DNA from: a virus
Lineage: Duplodnaviria > Heunggongvirae > Uroviricota > Caudoviricetes
Strand: one strand, 5' to 3'
Virus record (IMG/VR): IMGVR_UViG_3300008111_001458
DNA: 64,000 bases
Shown: positions 17,668 to 55,923 of the stretch, in pieces
How positions within the stretch are numbered: the stretch's first letter is position 1
How the letters are laid out: the number at the start of each line of letters is the position of its first letter
Notes under the pieces: generated by a model
Told to the model about the DNA's origin: nothing
Seen by the model: the letters and a program-made list of their open reading frames with translations, nothing else
Database searches by the model: none
Made by a program: the position numbers and the translations under genes

Positions 17668-17748
17668 ATAAAAACGCAATTAGCACCCAATGGGCTAATT
17701 GTAACGAGCTCAGTGCTCATTAAATTCTTACTTTTTAAGGAGAAAAAT

Positions 17749-19662
17749 ATGTCAAAAATCATCGGTATCGATTTGGGTACCACAAACTCATGTGTAGCTG
17801 TTATTGAAAACGGCAAATCCAAAGTAATTGAAAACTCAGAAGGCGCAAGAACAACTCCGAGTATTGTTGCTTATACAGACAGCGATATTTTAGTAGGTGC
17901 TTCAGCAAAGCGTCAGGCGGTAACTAATCCCAAAAACACAATTTATGCATCTAAGCGGTTAATTGGACGTAAGTTCAATGAACAGGCTGTTCAGAAGGAC
18001 ATTGACCTAATGCCTTATGAAATTGTCAAGGCAACAAATGGTGATGCTTGGATTCGCGCACAAGGAAAAGAAATGGCACCTCCACAGGTGTCTGCAGAAG
18101 TTCTTCGCAAGATGAAAAAGACTGCAGAGGACTATTTAGGGCATGAAGTTACACAGGCTGTTATTACAGTGCCTGCTTACTTCAATGATAGTCAAAGACA
18201 GGCAACTAAAGATGCCGGTCAAATCGCTGGCTTAGAAGTTCTACGTATTATTAACGAACCTACTGCGGCTGCATTAAGCTACGGTGTTGACAAGACAGAC
18301 AAAGCTGATCGTAAGATTGCGGTGTATGACTTAGGTGGTGGCACATTTGATATCAGTATCATTGAGATTGCCAACGTCGAAGGCGACAAACAAATTGAAG
18401 TATTGTCAACAAACGGCGATACATTCTTAGGCGGTGAAGACTTTGACCAGCGCATTATGGATTATCTGGTTGAGGAATTTAAGAAAGAGCAAGGCATTGA
18501 TCTAACTAAAGATATGTTGGCACTACAACGTCTTAAGGACTCTGCTGAAAAAGCTAAGATTGAATTATCTAATTCTACACAAACTGAAGTTAATCTTCCA
18601 TACATTACTGCCGATGCTAGTGGTCCTAAACATCTAGTGGTAAAAATTACCAAGGCAAAATTGGAACAGTTAGTTGACGATTTAATTCAACGTTCATTAG
18701 AACCTTGTCGTATTGCTATGAAAGATGCCGGAGTTACCGCAGATCAGATCGACGAAGTTATTCTAGTTGGCGGCCAAACTCGCATGCCAAAGGTACAAGA
18801 AGAAGTAGAACGTTTATTTGGAAAAGCGCCACGTAAAGATGTTAACCCAGACGAAGCAGTAGCAGTTGGTGCTGCTATCCAAGGTGCTGTGTTGGGTGGT
18901 GATCGTAAAGATGTCCTATTGTTAGATGTTACTCCATTAACTTTGGGTATTGAAACAGTAGGCGGTGTAATGGCCAAACTGGTTGCTAAGAATACTACTA
19001 TTCCAACTAAGGCAAATCAAATTTTCAGTACAGCTGATGACAATCAACCTGCTGTTACTATTCGTGTGTTCCAAGGAGAACGCGAATTGGCACATCATAA
19101 CAAATTGTTAGGCGAATTTAATCTTGAAGGTATTGATCCAGCACCACGTGGTATGCCTCAAATTGAAGTTACATTTGATATTGATGCTAATGGTATTTTA
19201 AGCGTAAGTGCCAAAGACAAAAATACTGGTAAAGAAAATAAAATTACCATTAAAGCTAATAGCGGCATTACTGAAGATGAAATCAAACGTATGATCGCTG
19301 AAGCAGAACAATATGCAGAAGAAGATAAAAAAGCACGTGAAGTTATTGAAACACGTAATGGTGCATTATCTGAACTGTATACAATTCGCAGAGAATTAGA
19401 AGCAGAAAAAGATCTTGCTACAGAAGAAGAATGGAAAATAATTGAAGATGCACTAGAGGCTGCTGAAAAATTAGTCAATGATAATAGTGACATTGAAGAA
19501 ATTAAGAAAGGTCCTTTCAATGTAGCCGATGCTGCAAAACCTTTGTTTGAAAAAATTAAAGCCAAACGCGAAGCTGCCAAAGCAGAACAATCTGCACCGC
19601 AGCCAACTGATGGTGAAGTGATCGATGCTTCCTTTACAGCAACTGAAGGCAAGGCATCTTAA
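17749..19662 (+). CDS. dnaK: Hsp70 chaperone DnaK
   Basis: [33 protein letters not shown] and the EEVD-less bacterial C-terminus are present. The start is reset to ATG 17749 (RBS aaggag). Confidence 0.93.
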
Positions 19663-27458: not shown

Positions 27459-28268
27459 ATGAAAATTAGATTAGTATCAGATCTCCATTTAGAATTTTCA
27501 GATTGCTTCGATATTAAGAATGATGATAATATCGATGTCTTAATTCTTGGCGGTGACATTATGATCGCCAGTAAAGTTCTAAAACCTCAAAGTGAATACG
27601 GTATTCGTTTTCGTGACTTTCTAAAACGAATGAGCTTTCAGTTTCCTCATGTTATCTACATAATGGGCAATCATGAATTTTATAGTGATGGTCATTGGGT
27701 AGGTAGTGTTGAACAAATGCGCATGGCTTGCGGTGTACATGATAATATCTACATGTTGGAGAGAGATACTAAAATTATCGACGATGTAGTTTTTGTTGGT
27801 GGAACATTATGGACAGACATGAATAAGTACGATCCATTAACTATGCATGCCGTCCGAGACATGATGAACGATTATCGTGCTATTCGTAATGATCAGGCTG
27901 GATATCGAAATCTTAAACCTGCCGACACTGCCGAACGTCATCGTCAAACAGTAGATTATATTAAACATGTTGTTAAAGAACACAAAGATAAACAGTGCGT
28001 AGTAGTTGGACATCATTCTCCAAGTTGGTTAAGTGTGCATGAACAATATAAGAATGATTACATAATGAACGGTGCATATCACAGTGATCTCTCTAATATC
28101 ATGTTAGATAATCCTAATATTAAATTGTGGACGCATGGCCATACACATCATTGCTTTGACTATATGATTGGAGAAACTAGGATAGTTTGTAATCCTAGAG
28201 GTTATCATCAGGCAAGTGGGTGGAGTGAAGACACTAACTGGAACCCTTCATTATGTATAGAAATTTAA
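27459..28268 (+). CDS. Calcineurin-like metallophosphoesterase
   Basis: Motifs DLHLE, GDIM, GNHEFY, GHHS and GHTHH. Confidence 0.7.
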   Translation: MKIRLVSDLHLEFSDCFDIKNDDNIDVLILGGDIMIASKVLKPQSEYGIRFRDFLKRMSFQFPHVIYIMGNHEFYSDGHWVGSVEQMRMACGVHDNIYMLERDTKIIDDVVFVGGTLWTDMNKYDPLTMHAVRDMMNDYRAIRNDQAGYRNLKPADTAERHRQTVDYIKHVVKEHKDKQCVVVGHHSPSWLSVHEQYKNDYIMNGAYHSDLSNIMLDNPNIKLWTHGHTHHCFDYMIGETRIVCNPRGYHQASGWSEDTNWNPSLCIEI

Positions 28269-29062
28269 TCTTATTAATCCTGTTGTTCCCTATTAAGAGT
28301 TGGGCCGAATCCAACTCTTATCTTTATAATATCACCAATGATAAAATTGTCATGGGCGATAGATTAGATGAAGTACGACCAATTGCCAGCATAACAAAAA
28401 TTATGACTGCTATGATTGTATTAGACTACTATAAATCGTTATCTGATAAAATTAAAACTGGCACCGGAATGCTACCTCGTAAAGAGTATACTCTCGAACA
28501 AATACTAACTGCTATGTTGGTACGAAGTGATAATGGCGCTGCAGAAACATTGGCTAGAAATTTTCCCGGAGGTAGGAAGGAGTTTCTAATCCAGATGAAT
28601 CGCAAAGCCAATCAACTTAAAATGTATAATACCAACTTTGATGATCCAACAGGATTGAGTAGAAAAAACGTATCTTCTATTCACGATCTTAGTTTAATGA
28701 TGACAACGGCTCAAAAATATTCTAAAATTAGAGAAATTAGCATTAAGAAACAGGCATTATTTGAAACCAAATATAAAAAGAAAATTAGAACTATTCATTT
28801 GCATAATACTAATACACCAATACTTTTTGAATTTGATACTGTAGTGGTGTCTAAAACAGGGTATACCAACCCAGCTGGATGGTGTGTGGCAATGGTAGTT
28901 GAAAAGTTCAATAACACTTATGTTGTAATTGTCTTGGGTGCTAAAAACAAAGCGCATCGTATTGACAAAGTTAAGGAAATCATGTATAATCATATTGTTG
29001 ATGAAAGAGTTTTTGATAAAGACATAGACTATGATTTCCAAATCCCCCATCCTATTTTATAG
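28253..29062 (+). CDS. Serine-type D-alanyl-D-alanine carboxypeptidase (S11 / PBP5-like), secreted
   Basis: Signal peptide. SITK (SxxK) at 28390-28401, SDN at 28522-28530 and KTG at 28850-28858, in canonical order. Confidence 0.7.
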   Translation: MYRNLILLILLFPIKSWAESNSYLYNITNDKIVMGDRLDEVRPIASITKIMTAMIVLDYYKSLSDKIKTGTGMLPRKEYTLEQILTAMLVRSDNGAAETLARNFPGGRKEFLIQMNRKANQLKMYNTNFDDPTGLSRKNVSSIHDLSLMMTTAQKYSKIREISIKKQALFETKYKKKIRTIHLHNTNTPILFEFDTVVVSKTGYTNPAGWCVAMVVEKFNNTYVVIVLGAKNKAHRIDKVKEIMYNHIVDERVFDKDIDYDFQIPHPIL

Positions 29063-29506: not shown

Positions 29507-29686
29507 TGGCACTACCATTATTAATAATTGGATTTGCTTCTTTGTTTGGCAGTGGTTGTACCTTTATGGACTGGCGCAGTCATCGAGAAGAAACATCTAA
29601 AATTGTTTGGACTGTTGGTCTGGCTATTATTGGTATGTATATGGTAGTTGCTGTTATTGGACAGTTAGTAAGGCATTGCTCATGAG
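29507..29686 (+). CDS. Small 2-TM membrane protein (59 aa)
   Basis: Hand-found ORF MALPLLIIGFASLFGSGC... Confidence 0.3.
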
Positions 29687-30317
29687 TTTTAATTTAGGTG
29701 ATATTTGGTCATATGAAGATAAAACTAGGAATCTTCCTAGTATTCAAGTAGTACGATATCCAACTATCCATTATCAAGATTGGTTTCCAGTATCTGTAAT
29801 CAATCCTAATTTTGAAAAAGGTCCTTGGATTGCTGGCGGTGCTGGTTTACGTTGGTATCAAGGAATTCCTGTAGGGGAAAGCGACATAGATGTATATTGT
29901 TCTTCTCCCATGCAGGCAGAGCAGTTACAACAGAAAATTTTTGCTTCAATGGCCTGTACAGAAAAATACAAATCAGATAACGCTGTTACATTAGAAGTTT
30001 CAAAAGATGATCAGACATGGACTGTACAAATAATTAAGAAAAACTATTTTACTGATATGCAAAAAGTCATTGATAGTTTTGATCTATCAGTTTGTCAAGT
30101 TGCTACTGATGGAAATACCTACTTGTTAGGCAATCATACAGCCAAGGATATTCGTGAACGCAACTTAAGAATGCGTATGCCTTTACAAGCAGATGCACTC
30201 AAGCGCCTTATCAAATATTGGACCTACGGGTATCGTCCAGTAGACGGATTATTAGAAGCAATTCAACACAATCCAGTAGGTCGTTGGGAATTTAACCCTG
30301 CAGAGGATTATCTATGA
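29682..30317 (+). CDS. Pol-beta-superfamily nucleotidyltransferase-fold protein
   Basis: GGAGLRWYQGIPVGESDIDVY matches G[GS]-x9-13-[DE]h[DE]h. A downstream FDLSV is a candidate third acidic residue. The start is reset to ATG 29682. Confidence 0.45.
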   Translation: MSFNLGDIWSYEDKTRNLPSIQVVRYPTIHYQDWFPVSVINPNFEKGPWIAGGAGLRWYQGIPVGESDIDVYCSSPMQAEQLQQKIFASMACTEKYKSDNAVTLEVSKDDQTWTVQIIKKNYFTDMQKVIDSFDLSVCQVATDGNTYLLGNHTAKDIRERNLRMRMPLQADALKRLIKYWTYGYRPVDGLLEAIQHNPVGRWEFNPAEDYL

Positions 30318-31609: not shown

Positions 31610-32407
31610 ATGAAACGTATCGCAACTCTTGGCCTTATCGCTGCCGCTGTGTTGGCAACTGGCTGTACTCGTATTGAAACCGGTGAGGTTGGTGTACGAG
31701 TTGGTTTTGACAAACAGGTTCAACCTGGTGAACTATTGCCTGGTTCGTTTAATCAGGTATTGATTGGCGACGTGCTTACATTCCCTATCAAGGATGTCAA
31801 CGTCACACTAGAGAACATGACTCCTGTGGCCAAAGATAATAGCACAATGAAAGACTTTGATGCTGTGGTTGTTTACAACATCAACCCACAACAAGTATCA
31901 GAACTGTATGCTACCAAGAACAAGGCTTTCCACGCTGACTTCAAAGGCGACACTTATGTGATGTATAACTACATTGTTCAGAATGCTCGTAATGCTATCT
32001 ACAAAGCCGCACGTAAGTACGAAGCCTTGGACATGGCAGACAATCGTGGCGAAATGGAGAAGTTCATCCAAGACGAGATCGTTCGCAACTTGTCAGAAGA
32101 AAAGTTGGACGGTACTATTATGATTAGTCAAGTGCTGATTCGTAATGTTGTGCCAGCAGACAGTGTGGTTGAATCAGCTAACGCATTAGTTCGTTCAAAG
32201 AACGAGTTGAAGCAGAAGGAAGTTGAAGTTAAGACTGCTGAAGCCGAAAGCCGTCGTATGGCAGCATTGGCTAACAACTCAGGTGCATCAATTGCATTCA
32301 TGCAGGCCCAAGCCATGTTAAATATCTCCGAAGGTATTAAGAACGGTCAAGTGCAGACTATTGTAGTGCCTTCAAACTTTAACGCTTTGATGTTACCCAA
32401 ACAATAA
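31610..32407 (+). CDS. Lipoprotein with SPFH/band-7-like domain
   Basis: Lipobox LATGC, and the C-terminal region resembles the HflK/C-type SPFH domain. Confidence 0.45.
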   Translation: MKRIATLGLIAAAVLATGCTRIETGEVGVRVGFDKQVQPGELLPGSFNQVLIGDVLTFPIKDVNVTLENMTPVAKDNSTMKDFDAVVVYNINPQQVSELYATKNKAFHADFKGDTYVMYNYIVQNARNAIYKAARKYEALDMADNRGEMEKFIQDEIVRNLSEEKLDGTIMISQVLIRNVVPADSVVESANALVRSKNELKQKEVEVKTAEAESRRMAALANNSGASIAFMQAQAMLNISEGIKNGQVQTIVVPSNFNALMLPKQ

Positions 32408-32836: not shown

Positions 32837-33159
32837 CTTTAACTAATCAAAGACTTATTGAAGAAATAAAAGGAATCCGCCGAGTGGTGATTAACATTTG
32901 CCACGGCGGATTTAGCCTTAGTGATCAAGCAATTGAAAAATATCGAGAGCTCACCGGTATAACTGATGAAAAATTTTGGGATCGAGATATATCAAGAGAC
33001 GATCCCTATCTAATTCAAATAATCAATGAAATGGGCGAAAAAGCCAACGGTTCTTACGCCGAATTAAAAATCGTAGAGATTCCTGCAGATGTTGATTGGA
33101 TTGTTGAGGAATACGATGGAAGAGAATGGATTGCCGAACGACATAGAACTTGGGACTAA
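32833..33159 (+). CDS. Hypothetical small protein
   Basis: 108-aa ORF. Confidence 0.4.
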   Translation: MTLTNQRLIEEIKGIRRVVINICHGGFSLSDQAIEKYRELTGITDEKFWDRDISRDDPYLIQIINEMGEKANGSYAELKIVEIPADVDWIVEEYDGREWIAERHRTWD

Positions 33160-33391
33160 ACTTAAACAAGTTTTAGCTACAAGATCTCGAGCTGTCTTTA
33201 GTTATCGTATAAACTTTGACACAATAGGATATGAATCTTTAGATCTCATGAGAAAGTGGTGTGAAGATAATTGTTCTGGACTTTGGCGATTAGAGCATGT
33301 CCACGCACTATATTTTCAATTTGAAAACGACAGAGATGCTACAATGTTTATGCTACGTTGGGGCACCGCAGAAGGAAATAGATTGAAATGA
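33116..33391 (+). CDS. Small protein, member 1 of the FxLKW C-terminal-motif paralog family
   Basis: Ends WCEDNCSG...LYFQFENDRDATMFMLRWG. The start is reset to MEENG. Confidence 0.45.
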   Translation: MEENGLPNDIELGTKLKQVLATRSRAVFSYRINFDTIGYESLDLMRKWCEDNCSGLWRLEHVHALYFQFENDRDATMFMLRWGTAEGNRLK

Positions 33392-33780
33392 TACAACCGT
33401 GGCAACTAAACCTTTTAGATAAAATGACACAGTATAAAGGTAAAGGTATGACAACAATTACTGGACGCAATTTAGGCAAGAGTGCCTTTTCAACTCAGGC
33501 TTTTCAAAGATTGTGGGAAGATATTCATGCTCGTCCTGTAGAAGATCTTAAGCTCACAGAAGGCACAGTCTACGGTGCTAGATATTATTGTGTAGAACCA
33601 GTTGGTGGAGTATGGCGAGAAATGGAAGCGTGGTGCGTAGAAACATTTGGTTCAGTTGGGGAACACATGTGGGGTAACGAGAAAGCACCAGATCCTGCAC
33701 AGCGTTGGTACATGAACAATCGCAAGTTCTGGTTCCACAATGAAGTAGATAGAATGGTGTTTGTATTAAAATGGCGATAA
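33388..33780 (+). CDS. Small protein, FxLKW family member 2
   Basis: Ends WCVETFG...FWFHNEVDRMVFVLKWR. Confidence 0.45.
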   Translation: MIQPWQLNLLDKMTQYKGKGMTTITGRNLGKSAFSTQAFQRLWEDIHARPVEDLKLTEGTVYGARYYCVEPVGGVWREMEAWCVETFGSVGEHMWGNEKAPDPAQRWYMNNRKFWFHNEVDRMVFVLKWR

Positions 33781-34148
33781 AACTTTTAAGACGAAAAGTT
33801 ATTATAAGAGAGCACGACTTTAATAAAGTTGAAGCTAAATCTCGGCACCTGTCATTATATGACAGGATGTCATTTACTCCTCTTAATCAAGATAGTTTAG
33901 AAAAATTAAAACTACAAGAAATTTTAAGAGGTAAGACTGGGCCTTTAGCAGCTATTGATACTGATCTTAAAATGCCTGCAGTTCTAGTGGCACAGTTACA
34001 AGACTTTCTCTACGACAAAAAATATCATCAATGGACTGTATCCATTGATGAAGAAGGTTACCTCTGTGTACAGTCTAGAAAGAATACACCTAGAACTAGA
34101 TTAGGGTGGGGTATCTTTGAAAAAGATATAGAAAGACATTATGAATAA
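33771..34148 (+). CDS. Hypothetical small protein (no family motif)
   Basis: 125-aa ORF. Confidence 0.4.
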   Translation: MAIKLLRRKVIIREHDFNKVEAKSRHLSLYDRMSFTPLNQDSLEKLKLQEILRGKTGPLAAIDTDLKMPAVLVAQLQDFLYDKKYHQWTVSIDEEGYLCVQSRKNTPRTRLGWGIFEKDIERHYE

Positions 34149-34404
34149 TTTAGAAGAAGAAATAACTCAAGAACTAGCTACACAGATGCAAAGTGAAATG
34201 GACTTTCATATTCTTTCTGATATGTTGGTCAAATCCTGCGGATGGAAGAAAGTCACATTAACCAGATTCTTTAGTCGTAAACATTCTGTGAATATTTTAA
34301 TGTGGTGCGAAGAAAATATTAAAAATCCTTTTGAACATAGAGGAAGCACTTTTGTATTTGAGAATGAAGGTGATGCTGTTAACTTTACACTAAAATGGTT
34401 ATGA
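34141..34404 (+). CDS. Small protein, FxLKW family member 3
   Basis: Ends WCEENIKNPFEHRGSTFVFENEGDAVNFTLKWL. Confidence 0.45.
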   Translation: MNNLEEEITQELATQMQSEMDFHILSDMLVKSCGWKKVTLTRFFSRKHSVNILMWCEENIKNPFEHRGSTFVFENEGDAVNFTLKWL

Positions 34405-34625
34405 AAACTGCTAGAGATTTTCCTTACCAAACAGTTACTGATAGAACCAATCATGGAAAAGCTGCAGAATGGTGCAAGGAAAAGTTTGGTCCTAGATGGG
34501 AAGCTATAGGATATAGAGAAGGTACATGGTGTACATTTTGGCAAGGTCGAGGCGTACCGGGAAGCTATGAATGGTTCTTTCTCAACGAACAAGATTATTT
34601 GATGTTTACTTTAAAATGGTTATAA
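34395..34625 (+). CDS. Small protein, FxLKW family member 4
   Basis: Starts MVMKTARDF. Ends WCKEKFG...WFFLNEQDYLMFTLKWL. Confidence 0.45.
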   Translation: MVMKTARDFPYQTVTDRTNHGKAAEWCKEKFGPRWEAIGYREGTWCTFWQGRGVPGSYEWFFLNEQDYLMFTLKWL

Positions 34626-34882
34626 AAACTTCTGTACACCATTGGCGTTTTGAGGACGGCAAGACAGTGCCTAACCCCAGTAGCCATTTCCCTTTAGGAC
34701 CTCCTCCTCGTGGTTGGTACTGTTGGGTATATCCCGAAGACGATCATGAGTTTGAAGAATGGATGGCTAAGATGTGTCCTACGACAGATTGCACACACCG
34801 ATTTAACGGTGGCGATCCCATGTACACCGTTTTTATTAAAGAAGATAAAGAAGCGACACTGTTTCAATTAAAATGGATGTAA
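34616..34882 (+). CDS. Small protein, FxLKW family member 5
   Basis: The start is reset to MVIKTSVHH, which parallels member 4. Ends WMAKMCPTTDC...VFIKEDKEATLFQLKWM. Confidence 0.45.
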   Translation: MVIKTSVHHWRFEDGKTVPNPSSHFPLGPPPRGWYCWVYPEDDHEFEEWMAKMCPTTDCTHRFNGGDPMYTVFIKEDKEATLFQLKWM

Positions 34883-34885
34883 TAC

Positions 34886-35281
34886 ATGGCAAGATGGTAT
34901 AAGGATATCGACAGAACTTTTCAAATTAATGAATATCTTTCTGATCGATATTCTTCAAATCATAAAGACAAGATTCGTTGGCCGGTAACAAATAAGTATG
35001 TTATAATAAACACCCCCGAAGGAGATCGCGTGGAAGAAGTTAAAGAGATAATAGTTCATCAATTCTCGATGGGGGATGTTGAAGATCCAGATCTTTACGC
35101 TGCTACTCCTCTATGGGAGTGGGAGAAAAGTGAACAAGGACAGTGGGTAATGAAAAATGCCGTGGATACCCCAACGTGGTATCGAATGGCTGATACCAGT
35201 ATATTTGGTTACAAATATCAAATTAGAGCCAAGCTAATGGGTCCGGCATTAACAGAATGGTTGTTGAGGTTTGGTGAGTGA
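34886..35281 (+). CDS. Hypothetical small protein (no family motif)
   Basis: 131-aa ORF. Confidence 0.4.
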   Translation: MARWYKDIDRTFQINEYLSDRYSSNHKDKIRWPVTNKYVIINTPEGDRVEEVKEIIVHQFSMGDVEDPDLYAATPLWEWEKSEQGQWVMKNAVDTPTWYRMADTSIFGYKYQIRAKLMGPALTEWLLRFGE

Positions 35282-35538
35282 AAGATAATCCAAAACAATT
35301 TATTACTATGGCTCACAAAAAAGTGGGTTCGGTATTATTAGAAGATGATAAACTGATGTCTATCTTAAATGGTTATCATATTGTACGATTAGAAGGTGAC
35401 GACGACTTTAATGAAAAACTCACGTGGTGTATGGAACACTGTCAAAGTAAATTTCGAGATATAAGAGAATCTAACTGCCGTGCTTGGTATTTTCAAAATG
35501 AACAGGACGCCAGTATGTTTGCCATGAAATGGTCTTAA
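35278..35538 (+). CDS. Small protein, FxLKW family member 6
   Basis: Ends WCMEHCQSKF...WYFQNEQDASMFAMKWS. Confidence 0.45.
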   Translation: MKDNPKQFITMAHKKVGSVLLEDDKLMSILNGYHIVRLEGDDDFNEKLTWCMEHCQSKFRDIRESNCRAWYFQNEQDASMFAMKWS

Positions 35539-35760
35539 ATGTTAGTAGTATATCTCGATGATTCAAAAATAGTCTACGATAGATCCTTAGAATATTTTCA
35601 AACAGCGGCAGATTGGGCCAAAGCTCAATGTCAAAGTTTTGTTGACTATCATGTTCAAGATGTTTCAGATGTATCAATGATGTTCGATCACGTGGCAGAA
35701 TATCGATTTAAAGATTCTAAAGATGTTTTAATGTTTCAATTAAAATGGAAAACCAATTGA
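35539..35760 (+). CDS. Small protein, FxLKW family member 7
   Basis: Ends WAKAQCQSF...YRFKDSKDVLMFQLKWKTN. Confidence 0.45.
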   Translation: MLVVYLDDSKIVYDRSLEYFQTAADWAKAQCQSFVDYHVQDVSDVSMMFDHVAEYRFKDSKDVLMFQLKWKTN

Positions 35761-35816
35761 CTTTTGAAGTTAATGAGTATATAATTAACTTGTTTAATAA
35801 TATATAGGTAACTTAA

Positions 35817-36573: not shown

Positions 36574-37131
36574 GTGAAAAAAATCGAGGACTTCAATGCC
36601 GAAGATCGTATTGATATCGAACTACTCGGAAACAGTATACATTTCTTAGTGGGAGAAATAAATGAGGACACGATCAAAAGTGCTATAAAATGGATTGTTT
36701 ACGAAAACCTAGAGTCAAAGGAAAAAACATTAACTTTATACGTTAATTCAACAGGCGGTGATCTTTATCAAGCATTTGCCTTAATTGATGTAATGCGTAG
36801 CAGTAATCACACAATTAGAACTGTTGGTATCGGTGCTGTAATGAGTGCAGCATTTTTAATTTTTGCCAGCGGTGATCAAGGTGAAAGATACGCAGCTCGT
36901 AATACTAGTTTTATGTGTCATCAGTTTTCAGAAAGTATGGATAACAAATATCATGACCTTAAAGCTACTATGCGAGAAAATGATTTATGTAATGAAAAAA
37001 TGGTACAAATATTAAAAGACGCTACAGGACTTGCTCCTAGCGTAGTCAAAAAGAAATTACTGCCCGCCAGTGATGTTTATCTATCATCCCAGGAAGTCAT
37101 AGATCTCAACGTTGCAGATCATCTGTTATAA
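36574..37131 (+). CDS. ClpP-like serine protease subunit
   Basis: GTG start with RBS aatggag. [21 protein letters not shown] ... [31 protein letters not shown] matches the ClpP core, including Ser and His catalytic positions. Confidence 0.7.
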
Positions 37132-37133
37132 AT

Positions 37134-37352
37134 ATGTCTAAAGAAGATATTATTAAGTTCGACGGAACTATTGTAGAAGTTCTGCCCAACACAACTTATC
37201 GTGTAAAATTAGCAGATACCCAAACAGTAGTATATGCTTATTCTAGCGGTAAAATTAGGAAGAACAACATTAAAATTCTGTTAGGTGATACAGTAACTTT
37301 GGAGTTTAGCCCCTATGACCTTTCCAAAGGAAGGATTGTTTACCGAAAATAA
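37134..37352 (+). CDS. infA: Translation initiation factor IF-1
   Basis: 72 aa. [64 protein letters not shown] is near-collinear with E. coli InfA. Confidence 0.88.
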
Positions 37353-38020: not shown

Positions 38021-38950
38021 ATGCAACCAGTACAAATAGCTATGTCGGGAGTTACTCCCGGAACTTATGGAAACAACACCCAGATTCCTTCTTTCACAGT
38101 TGATGCTAGAGGTAGACTAGTATGGGCTGCAAATGTTGATATTCAATCAACATTTAAATTTAAGGTTAATGATGACGATAGAATTGAAACCGTTAATTTA
38201 AGTAATGATTCATTCAATTTTAGAAGTGGACATGGAATCAATATAACACCGGCACCAGACGGAATTAATATTGATTTTGATAGATCAATAATTCCCGATA
38301 CTAGTGACTTTGTTAGAAAATCAGAAACATCTCATCAATTTTTAGGATCTATAAGATCTCCGTTAATTTATTCTCAAGAAGGAATATTTGATTCAGTTAC
38401 TACAAAAGAAATATTAATAGATGGTGTATATACTAGATTTCAAACAAAAGGGTTCCATGTAGATTTTACAGACTTTGATGTTCTTGATTCTAAAGTTTTT
38501 CAAATCGATGGAATTTCAAAAAATACTAATACTGAAACAGCAAATTTTAATGTTGATATTACATCTTCTTGGTTAAAATTCACCAGTCAAATTGAACTTC
38601 CTAATTCTGCTTTAAGTTTTCCAGATGGCCATGCTTTGGGAATTATTTCTTTTCAAGATGGCGGAATTGAAATGGGATATGGTGCAGGATTAATTGCTAT
38701 CAAAAATTTTAATAATGATGGATCTTCACCGACAGGAATTTGCGTTATTACTTCAAATGGGAAAGATGATATTTTTGAAAATCCAACAAAGTTTAACTTT
38801 GGTGGCGACGGAGTATTTGAAGCACCAATTTTAAAAACAAAAAGCTATACAAGTTTGCCAGATAATCCCAAAGAAGGTTGGATAGTATTTGATGGCAACA
38901 ACAAACAATTTAAAGGGTGGAACGGAACTAGTTGGATAACTTTAGGATAA
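38021..38950 (+). CDS. Hypothetical protein, possibly structural; last + strand gene before the strand switch
   Basis: 309-aa ORF. It overlaps a convergent minus-strand gene by 23 nt. Confidence 0.4.
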   Translation: MQPVQIAMSGVTPGTYGNNTQIPSFTVDARGRLVWAANVDIQSTFKFKVNDDDRIETVNLSNDSFNFRSGHGINITPAPDGINIDFDRSIIPDTSDFVRKSETSHQFLGSIRSPLIYSQEGIFDSVTTKEILIDGVYTRFQTKGFHVDFTDFDVLDSKVFQIDGISKNTNTETANFNVDITSSWLKFTSQIELPNSALSFPDGHALGIISFQDGGIEMGYGAGLIAIKNFNNDGSSPTGICVITSNGKDDIFENPTKFNFGGDGVFEAPILKTKSYTSLPDNPKEGWIVFDGNNKQFKGWNGTSWITLG

Positions 38951-40484
38951 GAGGTTTAAAATAATCTCTTATTATTGTTTCTTTAAACATTTCTGTAAAA
39001 TTAATAGACTTAATTAAATTTTGATATTCTTTATCTGTTAAATCTAAATTTTTTTCTCTATTGCTTAGTCTACTATCATTAAAACTACTAATATAAAAAT
39101 CTCCTCGATACGGCTTATTCTTCAATGTAGAATTTAATTCTTGCGAAAGTAATTCGGCCTGTTCGTAGCTGTTTATATCAGTATCATCATCTTTTCTCCA
39201 ACTAAAGAAATTTATATCGGGATTAGGAAAATAATAACCATACTTTGAATAATTGCGATCAATTTCACTCATATACATGTATTTCATAATATTGTGATTA
39301 CCAATAATACTTAAAGGAAATGTGTTAGCTAAATCTATTGGGCAATCTTTTCTTTTAAAAAATTCAACAGCCTTATAAATTGTATCTGTACTTTCGTAAG
39401 GTAAACCTATAATAATCCCCGAAGCAATGTAACTTCGATCTCCCCAAATTTCTTTACACTGATAGATAGTATCTATTAATCTTTCACTAGCCATCCCCTT
39501 ACCAATAAACTTTGCAGTTTTTGGATTAAATGTTTCTAGACCAAAGTAAGTTTCTGCTATACCGGCATCTTTTAGTAATTGTATTTGCTCTGGGTGTGCC
39601 GCTAATAAATCTGCTCTTAGATAACACCAAAATTTTAATTCAAAAGGCAAACTCTGACTAACATCTGCAAACATCTGCATCTTTTCTGTACTATCATTAA
39701 ACGTATCATCAACAATAAAATATTTTGTTGTTCCCCATTGTTCATAATTTTCTAAGAGTTCTCTACGTATAACATCAGCTTGTTTAAGATAGTTGACTGT
39801 TTTCTGTCCTATCAAAGGATACGAGCAATAGGCACATTTAAATTTACAACCTCTGCTGACTTCTAAATTTAAAGTTTCTTGAGGTTGTATTAAATCCCAG
39901 GACGTATATGAAGTAGTACTTAATTTAAAATCCCATGTTGGATTGTGCGCCTTACGATCATGATCTATAATTCTATTAAATATCCTTTTTGTTTTTCCCG
40001 ACAGAGAATCTAACAAATCAATAGTTTCAGTTTCTCCTAATCCGACTATAACATAATCTGTAGGAGCATTAAGATAAAAATCAATCCTTGCACCACCCAA
40101 CATTGTTTTTGTTTTTAAATTACATTGTTTGACATAATCGATCCAGGGTTTATAATTATCTCGAGCAAACTCAGTAACTAAACTTGGAATCTCAAATCGT
40201 TCTTTATCTGTTCCTGTTCCTTCTCCCGGATTACTGGTTCTAACACCAATATCAGGAAACTTAAAAGGCATCCATGTTGTACTATAGCCAACTAGTAATG
40301 TGTTTGGTCCAATTGCTTTATCTAATATTTCAGTGTATATTTCCCAAGTAACAAGAGAGCTAAAATTAATTACTAAACAGCTATAACCATAATTGCGTAT
40401 ATGACTGGCTAATCTGTGTACACCATAACCTCTAGATTTAATATTAAATTCTACAGTGTCAGTAAAAAGAATAACATCAAACAT
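38928..40484 (-). CDS. B12-binding (class B) radical-SAM protein, paralog 1
   Basis: N-terminal cobalamin-binding Rossmann-like domain (MFDVILFTDT...GYSCLVINFSS), then a radical-SAM core with LEVSRGCKFKCAYCSYP (CxxxCxxC). Confidence 0.7.
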   Translation of the reverse strand: MFDVILFTDTVEFNIKSRGYGVHRLASHIRNYGYSCLVINFSSLVTWEIYTEILDKAIGPNTLLVGYSTTWMPFKFPDIGVRTSNPGEGTGTDKERFEIPSLVTEFARDNYKPWIDYVKQCNLKTKTMLGGARIDFYLNAPTDYVIVGLGETETIDLLDSLSGKTKRIFNRIIDHDRKAHNPTWDFKLSTTSYTSWDLIQPQETLNLEVSRGCKFKCAYCSYPLIGQKTVNYLKQADVIRRELLENYEQWGTTKYFIVDDTFNDSTEKMQMFADVSQSLPFELKFWCYLRADLLAAHPEQIQLLKDAGIAETYFGLETFNPKTAKFIGKGMASERLIDTIYQCKEIWGDRSYIASGIIIGLPYESTDTIYKAVEFFKRKDCPIDLANTFPLSIIGNHNIMKYMYMSEIDRNYSKYGYYFPNPDINFFSWRKDDDTDINSYEQAELLSQELNSTLKNKPYRGDFYISSFNDSRLSNREKNLDLTDKEYQNLIKSINFTEMFKETIIRDYFKPLILKLSN

Positions 40485-42087
40485 TTTTATTTTTAAGATA
40501 GTTTAACAACGGTTGAAAATATTCTTTATTGGTATGATCATAAAACAGTTGATTAAAGTCTATAGAATTTATTAAATTATTATATTCTATCTTTGGCATA
40601 TCGATAGTAAACTCTCTATTTCCAAGTATTGGATGATTGAAAGAACTAACATAAAAATCTCCCTGACGTATTCTTTGATATGATGCTAATTCTTTAGTGG
40701 TAATGTCGGCTATTTCTTGTGCTTGATAAAAATTTTTAATATCGGTATCATCTTTCTCCCAATATAACATTCCGTCTACTCCGTCCTTAGGAAATTGATA
40801 TCCAAACTTTTCGTAGTTTTCGTCAAACCAACTAGTAGGGAACCATTTATTTCTATCGGTTTTTTTAATTATATTGAGAGGATATACTGTCGAAATATCT
40901 AGCGGACAATCTCTACGCTTTAACCAATCAACGGTTTCTCTCCAACTAGCCTGGGTTTCGTGAGGAAGGCCAATCATAAAACCCCCTTCTAACCATACTC
41001 GATCACCCCACACTTCTTTTGCTCTATATAAAGTATCCTTACGGCGACTTGATGGCATTCCCTTACCAATAGTTTTTGAGCTCTTGTCATTAAAAGTTTC
41101 AAGACCAAAAAATGTTTCTGCTATGCCTATTTCTTTTAACAGTTCCATCTGTTCGGGATGTGCGGCTAATAGATCAACTCGGGTATAACACCAAAATTTA
41201 ATTTTAAAAGGCAAGTCGCTCATTACCTTGGCCAACATTTCTAATTTTTCAGTGCTGTCATTAAATGTATCATCCACAATAAAATACTTAGTAGTACCCC
41301 AAAGTTCGTAATTTTTTAACAACTCGTCACGAATAATAGTTGGATATTTTAAATAATCATTGACATTTTTTTGACCAATAAGAGGAAAGTTGCAGAACGA
41401 ACATTTAAATCTACATCCGCGACCTACTTCTAAGTTAAGAGTTTCTTGAGGTTGTATAAAATCATATTCTGTGTATTGTGTGCTACTTTCTCTAAAATCC
41501 CATGTAGGAGCATGAGCTTTTCTATCGTGATCGATATATTTTCCAAATATGCGTTTTGTTTTTCCCGATAGTCGATCTAATAAATCAATAGTTTCAGTTT
41601 CGGCAATTCCAAAAATAACATGATCTATATTTTTTAGATCCATATAAAAATCTGCTTTTGCACCACCTAATACAATTTTTAATTTTGAATTAATTGTTTT
41701 AGGATATAACAACCATTCTTCAACTTCATTCTTTCCAAATTTAACCACTAAATTATCTTTTCTCCAATCGTGCATCTCTGACTTTAAATGACTTAATTCA
41801 TGTTGTTCCCCAATATGGTGTCCGGGAATCTGATTGGTAAATTCTCCTGGTTTTTCCGGCCATCTATAAGGTAACCAAGTTGTACTAAAACCAACCATAA
41901 GAGTTTCTGGTCCCACTGAATTATCAATAATTTCTTTATATCTATCAAATGTTAGTGCCGAACTAAAATCAATGACAAGACAAGAGTAACCATTTGTTCT
42001 AATTTGACTAGCAATTCTATGCACACCATAACCTCTAATTTTATGATGAGGATAGGGAGCATCGGTAAATAGTATGACATTAAACAT
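40477..42087 (-). CDS. B12-binding radical-SAM protein, paralog 2 (tandem duplicate of 38928-40484)
   Basis: MFNVILFTDAPYPHHKIRGYGVHRIASQIRTNGYSCLVIDFSS ... LEVGRGCRFKCSFCNFP, collinear with paralog 1. Confidence 0.7.
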   Translation of the reverse strand: MFNVILFTDAPYPHHKIRGYGVHRIASQIRTNGYSCLVIDFSSALTFDRYKEIIDNSVGPETLMVGFSTTWLPYRWPEKPGEFTNQIPGHHIGEQHELSHLKSEMHDWRKDNLVVKFGKNEVEEWLLYPKTINSKLKIVLGGAKADFYMDLKNIDHVIFGIAETETIDLLDRLSGKTKRIFGKYIDHDRKAHAPTWDFRESSTQYTEYDFIQPQETLNLEVGRGCRFKCSFCNFPLIGQKNVNDYLKYPTIIRDELLKNYELWGTTKYFIVDDTFNDSTEKLEMLAKVMSDLPFKIKFWCYTRVDLLAAHPEQMELLKEIGIAETFFGLETFNDKSSKTIGKGMPSSRRKDTLYRAKEVWGDRVWLEGGFMIGLPHETQASWRETVDWLKRRDCPLDISTVYPLNIIKKTDRNKWFPTSWFDENYEKFGYQFPKDGVDGMLYWEKDDTDIKNFYQAQEIADITTKELASYQRIRQGDFYVSSFNHPILGNREFTIDMPKIEYNNLINSIDFNQLFYDHTNKEYFQPLLNYLKNKNV

Positions 42088-42110: not shown

Positions 42111-42797
42111 ATGGTAAAAAAATTTAATTCAGTTCTAGCATTTGGAGATAGTCATGTTGCTGGATGTGAATTATCAAATCAATATACTTTTGAAGATTAT
42201 ACCAGAGGTAAAATAACAATAGAACAAGCAGATGATTCTGGAAAAAAATTAGCCTTTCCTCAAGTGGTTGCTGATAAATTAAATATTCCTTGTTATAATT
42301 ATGCAATGACTGGCGGAAGTAATGCTCGTAGTCTAAGATTATTAGTCAACGCATTACAAGAACATCCAAATAGTTTAGTATTGTTTGGGTATACATGTAC
42401 AGATAGAACAGAATTTTACTATCCAGACGTTGGCAATTTCTTAGGTAGAGATAAAGATAAATTCATACAAGTTGGTATGCAATGGAAAGGTAAGGTTGAT
42501 GGAACCATGATTCATCCAATTAACGATCTGTTTGTTAATGAAATGCTTCGTCCTTATAATAATTTAAATGAATTAATGTTTATAGTAGATAATTTATGTA
42601 CAGGATGGGCTACTGATTTTTTACATTTACCGTTGTTTCCAGAAATTATACCAAAGGTAGATAATGTTTTTAATTTTGAAAGTTGTGAGAATTATGTAAA
42701 TTGGTGTGAATTCAAAATGTATAAAAAATTACCATTTTATCATTACGATCAAGAAGCACATAATAATTTGGCTAGATTAATTCTTGAGGAGTTATAA
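42111..42797 (+). CDS. SGNH/GDSL-family hydrolase
   Basis: N-terminal block VLAFGDSHVAG (GDS-H). Confidence 0.5.
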   Translation: MVKKFNSVLAFGDSHVAGCELSNQYTFEDYTRGKITIEQADDSGKKLAFPQVVADKLNIPCYNYAMTGGSNARSLRLLVNALQEHPNSLVLFGYTCTDRTEFYYPDVGNFLGRDKDKFIQVGMQWKGKVDGTMIHPINDLFVNEMLRPYNNLNELMFIVDNLCTGWATDFLHLPLFPEIIPKVDNVFNFESCENYVNWCEFKMYKKLPFYHYDQEAHNNLARLILEEL

Positions 42798-43150
42798 TGT
42801 CTTGGGGTTATCATATTATGTTAGATTGTGCCGGTTGTGATTTAAAAAAAATTAAAGATAAAGATCACATATGGGCATTTGTATATACATTAATAAAACG
42901 TGTTGAAATGGAAGCGCACGGAAAAATGATCATTGAAAATTTATTACCAGGAACAGACAATGAAGGATATAGTGTATTACAAATGATTACTACAAGTAAT
43001 ATAAATTGTCATTTTGTAAACAAGACTGCTGATGCTTATATTGATTTGTTTAGCTGTAAAGAATTTAAAGCAGAAATAGTTATTGCTACTGTTAAAGAAT
43101 TTTTTAATCCAACCAGCATCAAATTAAACTTTGTAGAAAGACAGGCTTAG
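42797..43150 (+). CDS. speD: S-adenosylmethionine decarboxylase proenzyme, small bacterial pyruvoyl type (SpeD/SpeH-like)
   Basis: HIMLDCAGCD...IKDKDHIWAFVYT ... SNINCHFVNKTADAYIDLFSCKEF parallels B. subtilis SpeD (HVISELWGCD...ESHLTIHTWPE...AAIDVFTCG). Confidence 0.55.
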   Translation: MSWGYHIMLDCAGCDLKKIKDKDHIWAFVYTLIKRVEMEAHGKMIIENLLPGTDNEGYSVLQMITTSNINCHFVNKTADAYIDLFSCKEFKAEIVIATVKEFFNPTSIKLNFVERQA

Positions 43151-46825: not shown

Positions 46826-47073
46826 TCTTTTTCTTTTTCTATCATCATTAACACAAAGGTATTAATATTTTTCCAAGATTTAATAAATTCTTCGTTATTA
46901 TCTAACCATTGTTTAAATTCATCACTTTCTAAATAATCTTTATAATCTACATGGTCAATGTTTTTTATAAATTTGCTAATGCTATACATAATATCAGCCG
47001 GAGTATCCATTTCGTTTGTCATTGCAATTATGTTATAAATTTCTTCTTGAAGATTATTCATAAGAATTAACAA
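46816..47073 (-). CDS. Hypothetical small acidic protein
   Basis: 85-aa ORF. Confidence 0.35.
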   Translation of the reverse strand: MLILMNNLQEEIYNIIAMTNEMDTPADIMYSISKFIKNIDHVDYKDYLESDEFKQWLDNNEEFIKSWKNINTFVLMMIEKEKDYL

Positions 47074-48847
47074 TTAATAAATTTTTTAAAGAACCTCTAC
47101 GTCTCATAGAAACTAAACTTAAACCTTTAATATCTTTAATTTTTGGAACAACCTCGTAAAATACATTTTCTTTTTTCTTATTAACTATATCGCAACTGCC
47201 TTGTATTCTAATAGGATATGTATGCTCAATATCGAATATAAAAGTTGATTGAAGATCAATCACCCATTGTGGTATATTATTAAACTTTTTTGAAAAATCA
47301 ATAACTTTTCTTATCAATTCGTGACGATGATCGTATAACCATTCATTACTTCGTTTGTGTAATATGTGTCCCGGTCCGTCATCTATTTTTCCAAAAGTTA
47401 AAAACTGTCGAACAAGATTTTTCATTTTATCATATTCTTGTTTTGTTAACGGATCAGTTTTTAAAAATTCATAAAAATCATCATAAAACTGTTGATATGA
47501 AATATCATTATTAACTCTTAAATATCTTGAAATAATTTGAGAGTATCCAGTAAAGTGAAATTTTGTTATCATCCATCCGTACATATATCCATCGACCATT
47601 TCTTCTCTGGACATCGTTTTAGTTTCGCAAATTATTTCTATAGTTTCTGAAATGCCGTCGTTCGTTTCGCTATGCATGTCGATATAATCATGACACTTAA
47701 CTGCTTTTATTCCATGCATCAGTCTGCTGGTAGCAGAAGCAAGTTCGCTATTTGTCAACAGTTGAGTCCAATACATTTCAACTACATTGTGTTGTCCTAA
47801 TTCAATTACTCGAGTAAATCCCTCTTTCCAGCTCTTTAAAGTTTCATTAGGCATTCCCAGAATTAATTCTGTATAAGTGGGAACATTATATTTTGTACTC
47901 ATTTCTAACAATTCTTCTAAATTGTTTGTAGGTAAATTTTTACGTTTTATGGCATCTAAAGTATCTTCATTGAAACTTTGCAATGCAATAGAAACTCCTA
48001 AATATTTTGGTCCCAAAACCTGCCCAATCATAAAAATATTTTCCGTACTATTTTTTGCAGTAATAATACTCATTACTTCTACTTTTGGGTTACTATCTGT
48101 TACTTCTCTTAATTTTTTAGCAATCTCTAAATCTCTTTCTTTGAATATTCCAAAGTTTGCATCTGCGAGATATACATAAGAAATTGGTCGATCTCGTATC
48201 CACTCTATTTCGCTATAAATTTTTTCAAGTTCAAATTTAGCAACTTTACTGTAAGTAAGACTGCCCCAATCGCAAAATGTGCAGGAATATGGACAACCCC
48301 GATTGGTTTCTAATGTCATAGCCCAAACTGCATTCGGATTTTCTTCTATGATTTTATCAAATATTCCTGTTGTGTATGGACTTGGAATAACTGATAAATC
48401 CTTCATGCGTTTTTTTGGCATGAATTTTTCGATAGGTTGTTGATTTTTTATTCTTCTTAATATTTCAACAAATGTTTCTTCGCCTTCGGCCTGGACTATT
48501 GAATCAATAAAATCGTATTCTAAAAACCCAGAATTAACTTCCGGCCCCCCAAAAACAATAACACACGAAGGCCATTTTTCTTTAATTTGTTTTGCAAATT
48601 CTAAACAATAAAGGCGATTCCACATATAACAACTAAACCCACATAATGACGGATTTTCAATTTTAGATATGGCATCTTCTATTTTTTCTCTTTTAAAAAT
48701 CAAACCAGCCAGCGTAAAATTTTCTGCAATTTCTGGATATTGAATAGCATAACACCAAATGGTTCCAACACTATAAGGTATCCAATGATTGGCTTGTCCG
48801 TTGATTACTGCTGTATATTGTGGTTGTAAAAGATAAACGTTAAACAT
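47054..48847 (-). CDS. B12-binding radical-SAM protein, paralog 3
   Basis: N-terminal B12-binding-like domain, then NRGCPYSCTFCDWGS (CxxxCxxC). Confidence 0.65.
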   Translation of the reverse strand: MFNVYLLQPQYTAVINGQANHWIPYSVGTIWCYAIQYPEIAENFTLAGLIFKREKIEDAISKIENPSLCGFSCYMWNRLYCLEFAKQIKEKWPSCVIVFGGPEVNSGFLEYDFIDSIVQAEGEETFVEILRRIKNQQPIEKFMPKKRMKDLSVIPSPYTTGIFDKIIEENPNAVWAMTLETNRGCPYSCTFCDWGSLTYSKVAKFELEKIYSEIEWIRDRPISYVYLADANFGIFKERDLEIAKKLREVTDSNPKVEVMSIITAKNSTENIFMIGQVLGPKYLGVSIALQSFNEDTLDAIKRKNLPTNNLEELLEMSTKYNVPTYTELILGMPNETLKSWKEGFTRVIELGQHNVVEMYWTQLLTNSELASATSRLMHGIKAVKCHDYIDMHSETNDGISETIEIICETKTMSREEMVDGYMYGWMITKFHFTGYSQIISRYLRVNNDISYQQFYDDFYEFLKTDPLTKQEYDKMKNLVRQFLTFGKIDDGPGHILHKRSNEWLYDHRHELIRKVIDFSKKFNNIPQWVIDLQSTFIFDIEHTYPIRIQGSCDIVNKKKENVFYEVVPKIKDIKGLSLVSMRRRGSLKNLLIVNSYE

Positions 48848-53107: not shown

Positions 53108-53740
53108 ATGTATCTTACTTATGTTGACTTACCGCCCGTACCAAAATATATTAGAGATCAAATAATTCACATAGTAGAACACCCTATTCATAATTTTCAA
53201 AACTCGGCATCATTCGTCGAATATGCTAGAAAAAATCTAAACATAGAAGCAAGCCAAGAAATTATTGATGCTATTGTTGGTATAGAATATAATTCGCAGG
53301 ATTCTTTGGGTTATCATTTATCTGATGCTTTCAAATATTTTGATGATCTAGCAAATTTTGATTTTTTAGAAGTTAACGATGAAATTAAAAAATGGGTTAG
53401 AGAGAATATCGATCTTGATGTAATACACATTAGCATACAATCAATGCATAGTGGAAAAACAATCACCCCACACATTGATGAAATGAGAAATTACGCTTAC
53501 AATTATATCATAGAAACAGGAGGAGATAAAACCTCCACATGTTTTTGGACTCCAAAGGTAGAATACAGTCATTTAAAAACATATGCTCAAACAGTATTTC
53601 CATATGACAGATTAGATTTAGTAGAAAAAATTAAAATAAAAGAATGCGCCTGGCACAAACTAGATACTAAAACTATTCATAGTGTAGAAAATTTAGATCC
53701 ACATAAAAAAAGAATTTCGTTGTCACTGAGTTTTTTATGA
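53108..53740 (+). CDS. Hypothetical protein
   Basis: 210-aa ORF. Confidence 0.4.
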   Translation: MYLTYVDLPPVPKYIRDQIIHIVEHPIHNFQNSASFVEYARKNLNIEASQEIIDAIVGIEYNSQDSLGYHLSDAFKYFDDLANFDFLEVNDEIKKWVRENIDLDVIHISIQSMHSGKTITPHIDEMRNYAYNYIIETGGDKTSTCFWTPKVEYSHLKTYAQTVFPYDRLDLVEKIKIKECAWHKLDTKTIHSVENLDPHKKRISLSLSFL

Positions 53741-54921: not shown

Positions 54922-55923
54922 ATCCAAAGTTAAACAGTGGATTCCTGCTTCCCAGAATAATCCGTGGCGTTGTGGTACTACATGACAGTTAATGCTGTAA
55001 CGTTCCATGACTTTAAAAATACCGGGCTGATGATTGCTGAATAAAATATTGTTGCTGTCAATAACTAAAACATTACTATCAAAAAACACTTCTTGTGCAT
55101 ACCCTTTCCATTCGGTTAGCCACTTATCGATCCAAGCATCACTAAATTTGCCTGTTGTGTTTCGATAGTCATTGATAAATTTTGTATCGTCGAATTTCTC
55201 AAAATGATCTTGTAGCTCTACTATCTGCTTATTATGCAACGGTTCTGGTACCCAAGTTTTGTTTACGCAAAAAATTAGATCATCGTTAGTCATAAACCAT
55301 CCGTGATCTATGTGTCCAAAACCTTTCTGATGTGTATTGCCTGCATCAATAATAGTATTTTCTGGAAGATTACGTTTCATCCATTCGAGTCCAAGAGTAT
55401 TTCCCGGTCCTTTGATATTAGTAATTAATTTGTCTCCGCACTTAAACATTGTAGCTGTATGCCATAGAACTTGATTCTTTAATTGCTCGTGATAGACATA
55501 TTCACCGTTTGCCCACCATCTATCTACTAGTGTATCTAATTTTGGTGGAGGCATGCTTATCCAATTATAACCTCTATCAAAAAATTCCTTAAAAATATGT
55601 GTGTAATTTATGCTGTCTAAATATCTATCAGGCATACTAGTATATGTTTGATAGATGGTATTTCCATAAACTAGATATTGATCTCGGGGAACAATAGGAG
55701 CAGTTGCATATTTAATTTTAAAATTGCTTAGATCAATATCTTCTTTAAAATAGGTTACATCGGGACGATATACTTTAATTCCCATTTTAATCAAATAGTC
55801 TGCTAGATTATCTAAATCTTCTTTAGTTTCGATAAAAATTTGAGATAATTTATTTCGACTATGATCAACAAAACAGTTACCTACTATAATTTCTTTAAGC
55901 GGATCCCAATTAGTATAAATCAT
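54883..55923 (-). CDS. Hypothetical protein
   Basis: 346-aa ORF. Confidence 0.4.
   Translation of the reverse strand: MIYTNWDPLKEIIVGNCFVDHSRNKLSQIFIETKEDLDNLADYLIKMGIKVYRPDVTYFKEDIDLSNFKIKYATAPIVPRDQYLVYGNTIYQTYTSMPDRYLDSINYTHIFKEFFDRGYNWISMPPPKLDTLVDRWWANGEYVYHEQLKNQVLWHTATMFKCGDKLITNIKGPGNTLGLEWMKRNLPENTIIDAGNTHQKGFGHIDHGWFMTNDDLIFCVNKTWVPEPLHNKQIVELQDHFEKFDDTKFINDYRNTTGKFSDAWIDKWLTEWKGYAQEVFFDSNVLVIDSNNILFSNHQPGIFKVMERYSINCHVVPQRHGLFWEAGIHCLTLDLSREGRNRSVIS

Follow-up and report, generated by a model that had tools for sequence, protein, structure and literature searches.

Analysis of a 64,000-nucleotide (nt) stretch of the tailed-phage record IMGVR_UViG_3300008111_001458 in IMG/VR (Duplodnaviria; Heunggongvirae; Uroviricota; Caudoviricetes), referred to here as the window, showed an array of seven small paralogous genes on the plus strand at 33116-35760, with products of 73-130 amino acids (aa). 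The source is an uncultured jumbo phage from freshwater. The genes were named p1 to p7 and belong to a large phage-restricted family for which none of the libraries searched held a model.

The seven-gene array and its homology

The features of the array are given below, with the expectation value (E) of each copy in the leave-one-out trials or profile search and the number of related loci with an ortholog. The related loci comprised 80 IMG/VR loci retrieved with the p5 family alignment, and the counts out of 81 are therefore selected for p5, which was itself present in 81 of 81 loci.

33116-33391, plus strand: p1, 91 aa, family member; leave-one-out E 1.1e-5; orthologs in 32 of 81 loci
33388-33780, plus strand: p2, 130 aa, family member; leave-one-out E 2e-3, converged profile E 5e-14; orthologs in 34 of 81 loci
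33771-34148, plus strand: x1, 125 aa, interleaved non-member, dispensable; profile E 0.73; orthologs in 12 of 81 loci
34141-34404, plus strand: p3, 87 aa, family member; leave-one-out E 1e-5; orthologs in 42 of 81 loci
34395-34625, plus strand: p4, 76 aa, rare accessory copy; leave-one-out E 1.6e-8; orthologs in 4 of 81 loci
34616-34882, plus strand: p5, 88 aa from MVIKT, family member and most widespread subtype; longest open reading frame (ORF) from 34571
34886-35281, plus strand: x2, 131 aa, interleaved non-member, conserved neighbour of p5; profile E 2.3; orthologs in 35 of 81 loci
35278-35538, plus strand: p6, 86 aa, GTG start, family member; leave-one-out E 8e-10; orthologs in 33 of 81 loci
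35539-35760, plus strand: p7, 73 aa, last gene of the array; leave-one-out E 9.5e-6; orthologs in 23 of 81 loci

A second possible ATG for p1 is found at 33089, but the p1 ortholog P0072 begins MEENGL.

An earlier reading of the letters and ORFs (the sequence-only reading) had described seven small paralogs with a common C-terminus and two unrelated small ORFs between them, and the ORFs, the quoted C-termini and the homology searches all agreed with it. In the leave-one-out trials, a profile of six C-terminal modules was compared with all 860 six-frame segments of the window, and the omitted seventh copy was the top non-training match in 7 of 7 trials (E 8e-10 to 7e-3), and the next-best unrelated segment was mostly no better than E 0.05, with 0.0019 when p7 was omitted. 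All seven 3' ends were also detected as direct repeats in the DNA (42-50 nt at 60-79% identity), and alignment of the p5 and p6 families with hhalign gave the expected register (P 0.0014). The profile converged on 84 related sequences found exactly seven copies and no eighth in the window, and a profile search placed none of the small ORFs flanking the array in the family. Both interleaved ORFs fell outside the family (E > 0.7) and had no Pfam match; x2, which had been considered as a divergent member for its …EWLLRFGE end, was rejected on its profile value.

The proteins are short and the pairwise identity among p1-p7 is only 21-35%, as would be expected if the resemblance were due to chance or to a non-coding repeat and the ORFs were not real genes. 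This explanation can be regarded as refuted by the 7 of 7 leave-one-out recoveries, hundreds of conserved orthologs, ratios of non-synonymous to synonymous substitution (dN/dS) well below 1, confident structure predictions, and the location of every profile match in the related sequences on the coding strand, with none on the opposite one.

Size, distribution and annotation of the family

The module profile, iterated over the 84 sequences, converged at 497 members, all on the strand of p5. With 4 exceptions, the 497 members had the domain no more than 10 residues from the C-terminus; they formed 124 clusters at 50% identity and occurred, in uncultured aquatic phages, in 1-18 copies per stretch of up to 20 kb. 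A 39-sequence module profile, run exhaustively with HMMER against 1.84 billion cluster representatives (E 1e-3), gave 2,872 family clusters at 50% identity, and the retention of the motif in homologs was thus borne out. The best 150 of these 2,872 clusters were 51-161 aa long with a mostly C-terminal domain and few tandem fusions, and several matched proteins of 147-161 aa carried two matched stretches. Among the relatives, p1-type and p2-type units were also found fused in a single two-domain ORF (P0001, 175 aa; L019 2857-3444, 195 aa).

When p1-p7 were used as queries in a word-indexed search, 1,268 proteins matched at an E of 0.01 or lower, and nearly all of those with a name were called "hypothetical protein". 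A large proportion (149 of 160) of the proteins retrieved after the first homology search were p5 orthologs with 58-77% identity, and 80 p6 orthologs were recovered. Among the matches listed, none of the 240 homologs had a precomputed Pfam assignment. Searches of the family against Pfam-A gave no match better than E 0.02 and none at the gathering score; NCBIfam 20 gave no relevant match; and PHROGs v4 gave no match to the module, the sole match below E 0.01 covering the N-terminus of p6. PHROGs also had no match for two further subtypes or for the members in phage PA5oct described below. A match to an annotated housekeeping domain, the finding that would have told against the sequence-only reading, was therefore absent from the results with Pfam, PHROGs and NCBIfam.

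A scan of 185,579 bacterial and archaeal genomes, one per species, produced a single match, on a 1.6-kb contig of a metagenome-assembled genome, which indicates that the family is essentially limited to non-integrated phages. The retrieved IMG/VR loci came from contigs of up to 353 kb and a p2 ortholog was also found on a 212-kb contig, and these lengths point to a jumbo-phage lineage. Large phages carry many small genes with no assigned function. The curated libraries searched have no entry for the family, whose kind, expanded small accessory proteins of a large phage, is familiar and whose fold is ordinary.

Gain, loss and selection

Comparison of related loci showed that the arrays gain and lose whole units while the retained subtypes stay under purifying selection. 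Locus L001, which is 99.7-99.9% identical to the window, has an extra member of 72 aa exactly between p1 and p2 (L001 9783-10027 against window 33392-33414). In L002, otherwise 96-100% identical, an out-of-frame deletion of 161 bp truncates x1 (window 33808-33968). The dN/dS values against orthologs were 0.18-0.35 for all seven genes, rough figures with dS near saturation (1.3-2.1), and 0.14 for x2. The conserved 3' coding stretch would probably provide the homology for unequal recombination, by which copies may be added or removed.

Predicted structure of the domain

AlphaFold2 modelling of p5 from 146 p5-type sequences gave a mean confidence (predicted local distance difference test, pLDDT) of 93.6, with strands at residues 6-13, 33-39, 58-64 and 67-74 and helices at 43-53 and 77-87. 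An independent model of p6 from 81 p6-type sequences had a core at residues 31-86 (pLDDT 87-95) behind a disordered N-terminus, with strands at 34-39, 59-63 and 67-72 and helices at 44-54 and 75-85. The two models have the same core, in line with the common fold that had been suggested; the first strand of p5 (6-13) is additional to it. The predicted domain of about 55 aa is a three-stranded antiparallel sheet with two helices on one side (strand-helix-strand-strand-helix). The conserved unit had been put at about 35 aa, which proved too short, as the whole domain also takes in a strand ahead of the W-C-x-E helix; the divergence claimed for the N-terminal regions was found, in extensions that vary between subtypes.

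In the models, helix 1 carries the signature W-C-x-E-N-C and the last strand F-x-F; helix 2 carries D-A-x-x-F-x-L-[KR]-W, and an Asp/Glu-Ala pair is conserved at its start. The family-wide column frequencies were W 94%, F 93%, L 88%, W 80%, F 78%, D/E 90% and A 68%, and the family-wide profile held no conserved polar catalytic set. From the helix and strand periodicity, the conserved residues appear to form mostly a hydrophobic core and a helix cap and not a catalytic site, and the open sheet face appears variable between subtypes. A zinc site at the W-C-x-x-x-C pair was considered and rejected, the two cysteines being present in only 47% and 49% of members. The members are small, soluble, cytoplasmic proteins; they are hydrophilic and rich in Trp, for the most part mildly acidic, and lack membrane segments.

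The structure-comparison figures for p5 were 6.0 for the ACT domain, 5.5 for DCoH/pterin dehydratase, 5.0-5.4 for the insert domains of RNA polymerase alpha/Rpb3 and 4.9 for the C-terminal domain of T4 MotA; those for p6 were 6.4 for a designed sheet heterodimer, 6.1 for ACT, 5.9 for RRM and 5.2-5.6 for KH. Structure matches in BFVD were only to uncharacterised proteins of uncultured phages, and a search of PDB sequences with the p5 family profile gave nothing better than E 0.5. The modelled fold, a small two-layer sandwich of a common type that leaves one sheet face open, identifies no function. DCoH/pterin-4a-carbinolamine dehydratase has the corresponding order of two strands, helix, two strands and helix in a two-layer sandwich; however, its catalytic histidines follow helix 1, whereas the family profile has no conserved His and no Pfam match, and the conserved H9 of p5 sits in strand 1. 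The ACT domain differs in its completing fourth strand, its motifs and its Pfam model, none of which was found in the family, and the RRM domain in its fourth strand, RNP1/RNP2 motifs and profile match, which were likewise absent.

Candidate role of the domain

The reading preferred here, put forward tentatively as a possible one, is that the family provides a stable scaffold whose protein-binding surfaces have diversified and serve host takeover or counter-defence. It is drawn from the conserved residues, which look like core and helix cap, and from the open sheet face, which varies between subtypes. The domain itself would be the stable scaffold, and the exposed sheet face together with the N-terminal extension would form the diversified surfaces. 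Each paralog would probably have its own binding partner in the infected cell, a host or phage protein, and such binding would serve host takeover, counter-defence or regulation. The anti-defence, host-takeover and effector roles put forward in the sequence-only reading are plausible in view of the phage-only distribution, the copy-number variation, and the combination of a conserved core with variable surfaces. Pfam, which includes some anti-defence families, gave no match for the family, and no dedicated anti-defence library was searched.

The early-gene clusters of T4 and the host-takeover module of SPO1 consist of many short, tightly packed, coupled genes that vary between relatives and mostly have no assigned function. 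The genes in those clusters are unrelated to one another, whereas most genes of the present cluster are paralogs of one family with up to 18 copies.

Several points weigh against the scaffold reading. The orthologs are not visibly fast-evolving, contrary to what a simple arms-race picture predicts, and their identity is fairly high (58-77% for p5, about 50-94% for p6), a conservation that may fit conserved targets better than an arms race. The assignment of residues to core or surface comes from helix and strand periodicity. The fold is also generic and gives no pointer to protein binding over nucleic-acid binding. Small nucleic-acid-binding regulators, acting through an aromatic-rich sheet face as RRM and KH domains do, for example in translation repression or RNA binding in the infected cell, are an alternative. 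The core topology is that of an RRM/ferredoxin-like fold that lacks the last strand, the proteins are unusually aromatic (about 5% Trp; 11-21% F+W+Y), and the last strand often has Y, W or F where it faces outward. This role is nevertheless unlikely, as no RRM, KH or other RNA-binding Pfam family matched even at E 1, most members are unfavourably acidic (median isoelectric point (pI) 5.7; 55% below pI 6), and the family profile has no visible conserved basic patch.

Members in PA5oct and other deposited phages

Neither megablast of the array region nor tblastn of p5 gave any match in the deposited phage genomes. When 121 of the 124 subtype representatives were concatenated into three tblastn queries against 50,697 deposited phage records, two of the three queries had no match in these genomes, and the 11 matching records all belonged to the PA5oct group of Pseudomonas jumbo phages. 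Two members were identified in PA5oct:

EST35_0274 (QCG76155.1), PA5oct: 85 aa, hypothetical protein; profile E 1.5e-10
EST35_0275 (QCG76156.1), PA5oct: 73 aa, hypothetical protein; profile E 2.3e-9

A local tblastn comparison of p3 with EST35_0274 gave E 1.5e-4, and EST35_0283 is a doubtful third member. As in the window family, the pair ends with the C-terminal module W-C-x-E-N ... F-x-F-x-x-x-E-(E/D)-A-x-x-F-x-L, and the two genes are small, adjacent, on the same strand and near a phage ClpP gene. PA5oct differs in having two clear copies against seven in the window and in the replacement of the final Trp (…LQFGL and …LIHK). At the PA5oct locus (L085; MK797984.1 175638-187796), the members lie about 0.5 kb downstream of the ClpP gene EST35_0272, in a block that also holds FtsH-like, DNA ligase and MazG genes. 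The text of the PA5oct omics paper makes no mention of EST35_0274 or EST35_0275 (PMC7318152).

The N-terminal peptide of p2

The first 45 or so residues of p2 (33388-33525) carry a W-Q ... GRNLGKS peptide similar to two elements of the large terminase, its Q motif and its Walker A loop; a linker and then the family module follow the peptide. The peptide has the pattern PWQ..LL.KM...KG.....GR[QN]xGKS and was fused in front of at least three family subtypes, and it was also found in five small ORFs outside the family. Other occurrences were at L030 8240-8659, at L046 3821-4306 and in P0058. Residues Q6, G26, R27, G30, K31 and S32 were invariant in 19 peptide sequences. The three best matches of the peptide profile among PDB sequences were to T4 gp17, at a marginal E of 0.015-0.028, with residues 164-198 of gp17 aligned at E 0.015. 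The p2 peptide thus matches the Q motif and Walker A of the large terminase ([YW]Q-x(17-20)-[GS]R[QN]xGK[ST]), but the Walker B motif, catalytic Glu and nuclease domain of that enzyme are absent from the 130-aa p2, which had no Terminase match in Pfam. A peptide of about 45 aa is too short to be an ATPase.

The terminase-like peptide of the p2-type members could hint at DNA packaging, and small conserved proteins of large phages are sometimes structural, so that virion components or assembly chaperones present in many variants may be considered. Such a role is very unlikely. EST35_0274 and EST35_0275 carry no virion mass-spectrometry (ESI-MS/MS) note, while the flagged genes around them do; the array stands among metabolic and chaperone-like genes (Band 7, ClpP, IF-1, Hsp70) and not among structural ones; and a copy number of 1-18 is unlike that of structural genes.

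Gene junctions and coupling

The translational coupling proposed for the array was supported by overlapping or abutting junctions. An ATGA overlap joins p1 and p2, overlaps of 10 nt are found at p2/x1, p3/p4 and p4/p5, and x1 and p3 overlap by 8 nt. A gap of 3 nt separates p5 from x2, a GTGA overlap joins x2 and p6, and p6 and p7 abut, with TAA followed directly by ATG. At three junctions the Lys and Trp codons (AAA TGG) at the conserved LKW end contain the ATG of the next gene. The MV(M/I)KT N-terminus reported for two copies was confirmed in p4 and p5 and is explained by this arrangement: the ATG lies inside the codons of the preceding LKWL end, so the shared N-termini are a by-product of overlap and not a functional motif. 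A 19-nt sequence, TWAAAATGGTTATRAAAAC, occurs at both the p3/p4 and p4/p5 junctions (2 occurrences against 0 expected).

Codon use at the conserved end was compared in the window and L001-L083. Where the penultimate conserved residue is Arg, 57% of the codons were AGG, compared with 9% of the other Arg codons in these genes, and AGG before Trp yields (G)AGGTGG, which resembles a Shine-Dalgarno sequence. In 91 of 91 such cases a start codon came within the next few bases and opened an ORF of 45 codons or more. For the Lys variant, AAA-TGG provides the ATG of the next gene in 81 cases. Selection for the internal ATG at Lys-Trp was considered and ruled out, the use of AAA being 70% against a background of 67%, with no enrichment.

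The best sigma-70-like promoter match of the region is listed below.

35757-35785, plus strand: sigma-70-like promoter match, TTGACT-17-TATAAT, 11 of 12 consensus positions

The match lies in the 56-nt spacer between p7 and a 136-aa ORF at 35817. The number of promoter-like sites in the region equals the shuffle expectation, and the site is a consensus match only; the predicted promoter likely marks the end of the co-translated block.

Genomic context and ClpP

Other genes identified in the window are as follows.

532-1632, plus strand: ribonucleotide reductase beta
7429-8454, plus strand: PstS
8507-9919, plus strand: phosphate porin O/P
17713-19662, plus strand: Hsp70/DnaK
28253-29062, plus strand: D-Ala-D-Ala carboxypeptidase
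31610-32407, plus strand: Band 7/SPFH protein
36574-37131, plus strand: ClpP (Pfam CLP_protease E 1.3e-29)
37134-37352, plus strand: IF-1
38928-40484, 40477-42087, 47054-48847 and 55920-57407, minus strand: at least four radical SAM enzymes, two with B12-binding domains
42797-43150: AdoMet decarboxylase
53737-54921: aminotransferase-like gene

ClpP was the most consistent neighbour of the arrays, though not a universal one. In the window, ClpP follows the end of the array on the same strand after 0.8 kb. Of the 81 loci, 49 had a ClpP gene within 10 kb of the array, always on its strand, with a median distance to the closest member of 1.6 kb. A block of Metallophos, S11 peptidase, array and ClpP recurs in L087 and L088, and the ClpP gene beside the PA5oct members had no tblastn match to the window ClpP at E 1e-3. 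The members might accordingly be adaptors or regulators of the phage ClpP, with the domain docking on phage ClpP or on host ClpX/ClpA and the variable part selecting a host protein for degradation or shielding a phage protein. This is rather improbable. The linkage may largely be the inherited synteny of one phage lineage; several loci, such as L031, L049, L058 and L081, have no ClpP although their flanks exceed 8 kb on either side; and the members in L086 stand in another context with no ClpP within 10 kb. In addition, no adaptor family of Pfam matched, and the C-terminal Trp is part of helix 2 in the model (77-87 of the 88-aa p5), where it is unlikely to act as a free, degron-like tail. A broader proposal, that the family constitutes interchangeable substrate adaptors for phage ClpP and hence a modular targeted-degradation system of jumbo phages, is a long shot. 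The domain would then plug into the Clp machinery, and the N-terminus and sheet face would choose the host proteins, including defence proteins, to be destroyed.

The first part of the window (1-38000) contained an unusual cell-like gene set (Hsp70, porin, PstS, carboxypeptidase, Band 7, ClpP and IF-1). In the second part (38000-64000) the G+C content is about 0.29-0.34, down from about 0.36-0.40, and most genes are on the minus strand; its radical SAM, AdoMet decarboxylase and aminotransferase-like genes together look like a biosynthetic or modification cluster. The reductase was closest to those of Xanthomonas and Stenotrophomonas phages (55-60% identity) and the Hsp70 to gammaproteobacterial DnaK (67-69%), relationships that suggest a proteobacterial host. 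A separate observation concerns the gene at window 29682-30317, about 3 kb upstream of the array, whose ortholog at L001 6073-6708 carries the precomputed label PF26128 Gad2 (anti-Gabija). The label was not reproduced, as a local hmmscan of the window protein gave nothing even at E 5; the PF26128 model is perhaps absent from the local Pfam copy.

Implications

A single family that had no model in the libraries searched accounts for at least 2,872 clusters and up to 18 genes per array. Its definition provides an annotation model, together with a confidently predicted fold, for thousands of proteins now called hypothetical. As PA5oct is in culture, it offers a tractable experimental handle on two family members. 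If the paralogs are target-specific binders, possibly linked to ClpP, they would represent a new toolbox of host-manipulating proteins.

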